A DNA stretch of 41,062 nucleotides, from the IMG/VR virus record IMGVR_UViG_2939177367_000003, positions 1-41,062 of that record. One strand, 5' to 3'. Under the pieces are notes generated by a model. It saw only the letters and a list, made by a program, of their open reading frames with translations. It ran no database searches and had not been told where the DNA came from. Source of the stretch: a virus. Lineage: Duplodnaviria > Heunggongvirae > Uroviricota > Caudoviricetes. Positions 1,301 to 2,985 of the stretch are shown piece by piece (position 1 is the stretch's first letter; each line of letters starts with the position of its first letter). A program made the translations under genes and the position numbers.

Positions 1301-1446
1301 ATGTTAAAGCTATTTGCAAAGTACACCTCGATTGGTGTGCTAAACACACTTATACACTGGGTGGTTTTTGGTATTTGTATCTATGCCGCGCATGCAAATC
1401 AGGCTCTGGCAAACTTCGCAGGTTTCGTTGTGGCTGTGAGCTTTAG
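1301..1446 (+). pseudogene. gtrA: gtrA (bactoprenol-linked glucose flippase) 5' fragment, interrupted by IS5 after ~48 codons
   Basis: Translation MLKLFAKYTSIGVLNTLIHWVVFGICIYAAHANQALANFAGFVVAVSF matches the GtrA N-terminus, then runs into the IS5 terminal repeat; the rest of gtrA is absent downstream of the IS. Confidence 0.75.
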
Positions 1447-2642
1447 GGAAGGTGCGAATAAGCAGGTCATTTCTTCCCAAGCTGACTCGCTGATTAAAAT
1501 TTCGCGGAGCTGGGCCGATTTTTTTCCCGCAAACACATCGAATCAGCCTATTTAGGCTATTTTTTCCACCATTTCTGGCGTTATTTCCGGTTTTTACTGA
1601 GATATCTCCCACTGACGTATCATTTGGTCCACCCGAAACAGGTTGGCCAGGGTGAATAACATCGCCAGTTGGTTATCGTTTTTCAGCAGCCCCTTGTATC
1701 TGGCTTTCACGAAGCCGAACTGCCGCTTGATGATGCGAAACGGGTGCTCCACCCTGGCACGGATGCTGGCTTTCATGTATTCGATGTTGATGGCCGTTTT
1801 GTTCTTGCGCGGATGCTGCTTCAAGGTTTTTACCTTGCCGGGGCGCTCGGCGATCAGCCAGTCCACATCCACCTCGGCCAGCTCCTCGCGCTGTGGCGCT
1901 CCTTGGTAGCCGGCATCGGCTGAGACAAATTGCTCCTCTCCATGAAGCAGATTACCCAGCTGATTGAGGTCATGCTCGTTGGCCGCGGTGGTGACCAGGC
2001 TGTGGGTCAGGCCACTCTTGGCATCGACACCAATGTGGGCCTTCATGCCAAAGTGCCACTGATTGCCTTTCTTGGTCTGATGCATCTCCGGATCGCGTTG
2101 CTGCTCTTTGTTCTTGGTAGAGCTGGGTGCCTCAATGATGGTGGCATCCACCAAAGTGCCCTGGGTCATCATGACGCCTGCTTCGGCCAGCCAGCGATTG
2201 ATGGTCTTGAACAATTGACGGGCCAGTTGATGCTGCTCGAGCAGGTGGCGGAAATTCATGATGGTGGTGCGATCCGGCAGGGCGCTATCCAGGGATAATC
2301 GGGCAAACAGGCGCATGGAGGCGATTTCGTACAGGGCATCTTCCATGGCACCGTCGCTCAGGTTGTACCAATGCTGCATGCAGTGAATACGCAGCATGGT
2401 CTCCAGCGGATAGGGCCGTCGGCCATTGCCCGCCTTGGGATAAAACGGCTCGATGACAGCGGTCATATTCTGCCATGGCAGAATCTGCTCCATGCGGGAG
2501 AGGAAAATCTCTTTTCGGGTCTGACGGCGCTTAGTGCTGAATTCACTATCGGCGAAGGTGAGTTGATGGCTCATGATGTCCCTCTGGGATGCGCTCCGGA
2601 TGAATATGATGATCTCATATCAGGAACTTGTTCGCACCTTCC
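1447..2642 (-). mobile_element. IS5 insertion sequence (~1.2 kb)
   Basis: 16-bp terminal inverted repeats GGAAGGTGCGAATAAG (1447-1462) and its near-complement CTTGTTCGCACCTTCC (2627-2642) bracket a full-length transposase ORF. Confidence 0.9.
1594..2574 (-). CDS. insH: IS5 transposase (InsH), 326 aa
   Basis: Translation [37 protein letters not shown]... is recognisable as IS5 InsH. Confidence 0.9.
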
Positions 2643-2985
2643 CTAGTAGTCATTGAACCAAATAAAAAGCATGAATATGGCACTTAGAGTATTAATCAAT
2701 CGATTACTATACAATCACTAACTCGTTTAACCAGAATTTATTACACTGCGTTATTATTTGTTTCTGAAATTTTTATTATGAGTCCCCCCATCAATTCTCT
2801 GTAAGAGAGTATGTGTATCAAGTAGTAGAATGAATTAACAATCAGCAGGCAGATCACTAGCTAAAATTTATGCAATCAAGCGTCAAAATGTATTATATAT
2901 TTACCAGCCATCTGGTATTCTTACCAAGATCCCCTTAGAATAATCAATAAATTTAATTTTTATTTAAAATATGTAGGCACTACTT

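Follow-up and report, generated by a model that had tools for sequence, protein, structure and literature searches.

The insertion sequence (IS) at positions 1447-2642 of the 41,062-nucleotide stretch of viral DNA analyzed here (the window, meaning the whole of that stretch) marks a 3.3-kb deletion and is not a simple insertion, as judged by alignment with related prophages. We are highly confident that it reflects an ISKpn26-associated deletion in an argW-integrated, SfII/SfV-like prophage, with both junctions made by the transposase. The 4-bp sequences on the two sides of the element differ (TTAG at 1443-1446 and CTAG at 2643-2646), as the earlier note on this DNA had already observed for the span 1443-2646, and the reading proposed there, which favored an IS-mediated adjacent deletion or recombination between two IS copies over a clean insertion, is now supported by ten IS-free relatives, all of which carry between the two flanks 3300-3302 bp that are missing from the window. 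The features of the locus, with the evidence for each, are as follows.

1-1158, + strand: gene for an IntS-type (P4-like) prophage integrase, 385 aa (open reading frame [ORF]; phage matches; Pfam integrase domains on the identical gene in relatives)
1301-1446, + strand: 5' fragment of gtrA, codons 1-48 plus 2 nt of 120 codons, 146 nt (Pfam; match to relative L004)
1443-1446, no strand: left flank TTAG, native gtrA sequence, fits YTAR (uninterrupted in 10 of 10 relatives)
1447-2642, - strand: ISKpn26, complete, IS5 family, 1196 bp, transposase leftward (full-length matches to annotated copies)
1447-1462, + strand: terminal inverted repeat at the transposase-distal end, GGAAGGTGCGAATAAG (repeat finder, count of the 16-nt sequence, comparison copies)
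1594-2574, - strand: intact transposase gene, 326 aa (Pfam DDE_Tnp_1, E = 1.6e-35; DUF772, E = 3.6e-21)
2627-2642, - strand: terminal inverted repeat at the transposase-proximal end, GGAAGGTGCGAACAAG on the - strand (repeat finder, count of the 16-nt sequence, comparison copies)
2643-2646, no strand: right flank CTAG, native sequence of the spacer between gtrC and the acyltransferase gene, fits YTAR (once in each of 10 of 10 relatives; L004 7658-7661)
2643-2985, + strand: remaining AT-rich spacer, 343 bp, its upstream 528 bp being deleted (collinear with L004 from 7658, 98.7-99.9%)
2986-4020, + strand: intact acyltransferase-3 family gene, 344 aa (Pfam Acyl_transf_3, E = 2e-17)

By its sequence, the element is ISKpn26 and not canonical IS5. 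All of its bases (1196/1196) align, at 99.7-99.9% identity, with copies that PGAP labels as "IS5-like element ISKpn26 family transposase," and it is on these PGAP-labeled copies, from E. coli chromosomes and plasmids, that the name rests; identity to the "IS5D" copy of phage RCS47 is 99.4%. What defines ISKpn26 (near-identity, 1196 bp with 16-nt terminal repeats, and a single DDE transposase of ~326 aa) is all found in the window copy, which equals ISKpn26/"IS5D" (IS5 family, IS5 group) in length, in its 16-nt repeats, and in its 326-aa DDE transposase. In the 41-kb window there are exactly two occurrences of the 16-nt terminal inverted repeat, where 0.02 would be expected by chance, with the two paired by the repeat finder, and the terminal repeat pattern of ISKpn26, GGAAGGTGCGAA(T/C)AAG over 16 nt, is present in the window copy. 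Canonical IS5 (GenBank J01735) shares with this copy the family, the terminal repeats, the organization, and the YTAR target but is 1 bp shorter at 1195 bp and only ~91.5% identical (P1 mod749::IS5 and lambda KH100), so that the length and isoform-level identity of canonical IS5 are not found here. The name IS5 used in the earlier note therefore stands at the level of the family but not at that of the element. Alignment to the P1/lambda KH100 IS5, a check of the ends that had been proposed there, yields three 1-bp indels with a net gain of 1 bp. Since the nine other full-length ISKpn26 copies that we examined all agree with the window copy in their ends and in their length of 1196 bp, the ends of this copy are exact and the extra base is ISKpn26's own; the suspicion that a span of 1196 bp betrayed a 1-bp error in the ends was unfounded and is rejected.

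Read directly on the + strand, the sequence across the element is ...GTGGCTGTGAGCTTTAG/GGAAGGTGCGAATAAG...CTTGTTCGCACCTTCC/CTAGTAGTCATTG..., where slashes mark the junctions. An ORF of 91 aa (2371-2646, + strand) lies within the IS, antisense to the transposase gene, and runs out across the terminal repeat to end at the TAG of the flanking target; with YTAR as the target motif, this antisense frame would receive a TAA or TAG stop from any insertion.

The relatives were collected through a homology search with the acyltransferase, which led to a near-identical protein (P0001) and from there to the loci that encode it (L003-L012, n = 10). They are ten argW-integrated prophages in Escherichia assemblies, without an IS at this locus, and most of them share the order fadL-mlaA-yfdC-like, tRNA-Arg(CCT), int, gtrA, gtrB, gtrC-like, spacer, and acyltransferase, with products of 120 aa for gtrA, 307 aa for gtrB, and 546 aa for the gtrC-like gene (PF19528), and with a spacer of 871 bp. 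In BLAST alignments with the ten loci, the window falls into two clean blocks, 1-1446 (97.2-100% identity) and 2643 onward (98.7-99.9%), which in L004 correspond to 2910-4355 (at 100%) and to the sequence from 7658. All ten read ...GAGCTTTAG/CTTCTTCGCG... without interruption at the left breakpoint (in short, ...GCTTTAG/CTTCTT...) and ...GGGAAGTT/CTAGTAGTCATTG... at the right one (in short, ...GAAGTT/CTAGTAGTC...); the TTAG site with its gtrA continuation is CTTCTTCGCGAATGC, and the CTAG site with its upstream spacer is ...GGGAAGTTCTAG. The flanks of the window IS are thus two separate positions, in the same orientation, of the undeleted sequence of the ten relatives. Both TTAG and CTAG pre-exist as single copies at their own loci ~3.3 kb apart, and neither can therefore be the duplication made by an insertion. 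This comparison with prophages lacking the IS, which the earlier note had suggested, finds the left flank collinear up to the native TTAG and the right flank resuming at the native CTAG. Lost in between are the last 217 nt of gtrA, the whole of gtrB, the whole of gtrC, and 528 bp of the spacer, a part that includes a terminator-like hairpin; the right flank resumes 343 bp upstream of the acyltransferase gene.

The sequence to the left of the IS begins at position 1 with the ATG of the integrase gene, which is 95-97% identical in nucleotide sequence to the integrases of HK620, Sf6, HK633, and HF4s; in the relatives this gene lies ~160 bp downstream of the tRNA-Arg(CCT) gene argW, as seen in L004, where argW lies upstream of int. 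The gtrA fragment that follows is recognized by Pfam (GtrA_DPMS_TM, residues 7-54, 29.4 bits against a cutoff of 26.1), and its 1301-1446 are 100% identical to 4210-4355 of L004, whose GtrA is intact at 120 aa. In the window, the reading frame of this fragment continues into the IS, giving a fusion ORF of 84 aa that ends at 1555. When the IS is removed in silico, with or without either flank, stop codons appear directly after residue 48 of GtrA, in agreement with the earlier statement that the sequence after the IS is not the continuation of gtrA. Neither identical 4-bp repeats nor an uninterrupted gtrA after excision, the pattern expected of a clean insertion, was found.

A matching 4-bp YTAR duplication is absent around the window ISKpn26, TTAG and CTAG each fitting YTAR, and its absence reflects the history of this copy and not the nature of ISKpn26. 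The flanks differ at one position only, and degeneration of target site duplications (TSDs) is a recognized cause of their absence (PMC11708052), as would be expected if a simple ISKpn26 insertion had been followed by a point mutation in one TSD copy (TTAG/TTAG to TTAG/CTAG or the reverse). Such a history would, however, neither remove 3.3 kb including gtrB and gtrC, which are missing relative to the ten relatives, nor account for the C of CTAG being native at a distant locus in all of them, and excision of the IS should then restore gtrA, which it does not. With 3.3 kb missing, both flanks native, and gtrA not restored, we reject a mutated TSD, whose probability we put at next to nil. Likewise rejected is a deletion through the microhomology TAG followed by insertion, which would leave TTAG on both sides.

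What further distinguishes the two junctions is their position at sites of target preference. The motif 5'-YTAR-3' was derived for IS5 target duplications from 220 reconstructed insertions (PMC5009759), and insertion of ISKpn26 in acrR is reported to have duplicated a 4-bp CTAG (PMC8023600). In the window, both TTAG and CTAG fit YTAR and both abut exact IS ends. YTAR begins at ~1.9% of sites (0.019 per position) in this AT-rich region, and a breakpoint that was not chosen by the transposase would therefore hit it about once in 50. These figures bear on the idea that the 3.3 kb were lost through a double-strand break or illegitimate recombination and that the IS was captured simultaneously, without normal target cleavage. 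A deletion event accompanied by an IS5-family element and lacking a TSD has been described in E. coli C, and insertion into DNA breaks was proposed for it (PMC11708052), yet, by the same authors' own admission, their case is explained by an insertion with a subsequent adjacent deletion. Break capture predicts no target preference at either junction, whereas each IS end is exact and directly adjoins a native YTAR, a motif at only ~2% of local positions, and we consider it very unlikely.

The ISKpn26-associated deletion that we favor would start from the arrangement preserved in the relatives, int-gtrA-gtrB-gtrC-(871-bp spacer)-acyltransferase. As we infer the order of events, ISKpn26 would first have inserted at one YTAR site, either TTAG at codon 48/49 of gtrA or CTAG 343 bp 5' of the acyltransferase gene, and the transposase would then have created a second joint at the remaining site, at a distance of 3.3 kb in the same molecule, with loss of the intervening DNA and one IS copy left behind. 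Since the remaining copy would keep one flank per site, its flanks mismatch. The route may have been a single step, in which an IS end attacks the neighboring site in an intramolecular replicative transposition, the classical adjacent deletion; or the IS may have hopped locally in direct orientation, with homologous recombination between the two copies thereafter. Both routes would give the identical product, one IS with one copy of each target, which the sequence does not separate, and we hold them to be about equally likely. IS5 prefers nearby sites for its hops, and in mutation-accumulation lines of E. coli most IS-generated deletions join a pre-existing and a new copy, predominantly 1-3 kb apart (PMC5009759). 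Where TSDs are absent, the cause is usually an adjacent deletion or recombination between IS copies, and the transposition chemistry of the IS5 family (replicative versus cut-and-paste) is known mainly from IS903 (PMC11708052).

Scans of viral and metagenome contigs and the exact look-up of the fusion ORF returned no intermediate, that is, neither an IS at one of the sites with its TSD nor a two-copy form. The left and the right junction were sought in viral contigs and in metagenome contigs, where they had no other carrier, and the fusion ORF of gtrA and the IS had no match in the exact-protein look-up. In an assembly artifact, two direct ISKpn26 copies, at TTAG and at CTAG, would have flanked gtrA'-gtrB-gtrC and been collapsed into one with the 3.3 kb dropped; joins are classically collapsed at identical repeats of 1.2 kb, and the junction was absent from every other collection searched. 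On the other hand, the contig that encodes an identical acyltransferase (P0122, AOR20614.1) is 4.67 Mb long and suggests a finished genome, and the artifact itself needs two real insertions at both sites, which is an intermediate of the explanation favored here; we give it a very small probability.

To calibrate the flanks, we compared the other full-length ISKpn26 copies. The window copy differs from six of these nine, which have the perfect 4-bp duplication of a fresh insertion (CTAA, CTAA, TTAG, ATAG, TTAG, and CTAG). The remaining three have mismatched flanks, namely, CTAT/CTAA in phage RCS47, CTAT/CTAA in E. coli 23CRST026, and CTAA/TTAG in E. coli ML35 (the latter two on chromosomes). 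Mismatched flanks are common for ISKpn26. The ML35 copy has a truncated permease gene on one side and a truncated OrgA/MxiK gene on the other and is probably another IS-associated deletion. When the YTAR flanks of an IS5-type element do not match, this can be taken as a reliable sign of adjacent deletion.

A consequence of the deletion concerns lysogenic conversion. An intact gtrABC cassette (gtrA, gtrB, and a serotype-specific gtrC) is absent from the window, where only 146 nt of gtrA are left; gtrB and gtrC are missing from this locus and present in L003-L009 and L011. With GtrA cut to 48 of 120 residues and both GtrB and GtrC gone, the prophage would no longer be able to glucosylate the O-antigen, a loss that we deduce from its gene content. 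Damage to gtr genes is also seen in the IS-free relatives: gtrC is split into 317 plus 205 aa in L009 (5494-7129), gtrB has no call in L010 (4570-5490), and it is shortened to 245 aa in L012 (4570-5307), a hint of repeated decay of the glucosylation cassette in this lineage of prophages. Decay of gtrB and gtrC in several relatives would fit selection against gtr genes; that the deletion in the window was a selected reprogramming of lysogenic conversion rather than neutral decay is nevertheless, in our estimate, unlikely.

The acyltransferase is likely the remaining lysogenic-conversion gene. Its product is identical to P0122 and one residue off the common allele P0001, which carries the labels Escherichia marmotae or "MULTISPECIES [Escherichia]"; because of this one residue, the exact-protein look-up of the window acyltransferase had no match. 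The nearest other homologues are just 44-48% identical (E. coli and Enterobacter), species-representative genomes offer only a cyanobacterial relative at 36%, and neither tblastn against 50,697 phage records nor the search of viral contigs gave a match. The gene looks like a rare, recently acquired conversion gene. It lies on a very AT-rich island (2643-4150), with 26-33% GC compared to ~45-55% around it, and it is probably silenced by H-NS. IS5-type elements are known to activate silenced neighbors (bgl, glpFK, and flhDC), and under the same unlikely reading of a selected reprogramming the IS, now 343 bp upstream, could switch on or alter the expression of the acyltransferase gene. Consensus promoter scans detected a promoter-like site on the + strand neither in the retained spacer nor in the intact spacer of L004 and are uninformative on the gain or loss of a promoter. 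An accurate annotation of the locus would list ISKpn26 (not IS5), a pseudogene fragment of gtrA, and a 3.3-kb gtrB/gtrC deletion; O-antigen glucosylation should not be ascribed to the prophage, whose sole remaining candidate conversion gene is that of the acyltransferase. Beyond annotation, the finding matters little.

Downstream, the tail-fiber and tail genes are those of an SfII/SfI/SfV-like, myovirus-type prophage, with 96-98% identity to these phages. Between the acyltransferase gene and an invertase remnant lies a degraded, ISSfl9-like remnant of the IS4 family (~4158-4939, 92-93% identical to annotated copies), which was the only match when window 2643-5200 was searched by megablast against complete E. 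coli genomes; being common to all relatives, it is older than the ISKpn26 event. The invertase remnant (5054-5185, - strand) is a 43-aa N-terminal piece of a site-specific invertase whose Resolvase Pfam score of 21.2 bits is below the cutoff. Next to it, an invertible tail-fiber segment (5204-7119) is bounded by 27-nt inverted repeats (5204-5230 and 7093-7119, 85% complementary) and has the same orientation in the window as in L004 and L012, with the inverse orientation in L003 and L005-L011; as just a remnant of the invertase is left, inversion of the segment would be old or supplied in trans. At the far end, the attR core CTGCAGGGGACACCAT (40017-40032) equals the 3' end of the argW that precedes int in L004 (2734-2749), another partial argW-like piece is found at 39708-39723, and an Xis/AlpA-like candidate ORF, identified by reading the sequence, starts at 39744; in this region (39744-41062) the window extends ~1 kb beyond the prophage end into flanking DNA.

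Compared with known systems, the relatives have, next to argW, the same int-gtrA-gtrB-gtrC order as HF4s. HF4s and other P22-like phages carry a gtrABC O-antigen glucosylation cassette next to int, and so does CPS-53/KpLE1, at argW of E. coli K-12. Measured against the gtrABC cassettes that lie beside int in serotype-converting phages and prophages, the window keeps just codons 1-48 of gtrA, and the relatives differ from gtrABC phages by the extra downstream acyltransferase gene, which has no homologue in the phage collection. As to the deletion itself, the closest parallels are the TSD-less deletions generated by IS1, IS5, and IS150 in mutation-accumulation and long-term evolution lines of E. 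coli, which have in common with the window a single intact IS, a kilobase-scale loss, and endpoints at the target motif (PMC5009759, PMC11708052). Unlike these laboratory cases, the window represents a natural event in a prophage, without a time series. An IS-associated deletion with mismatched flanks is already a known and well-understood phenomenon.
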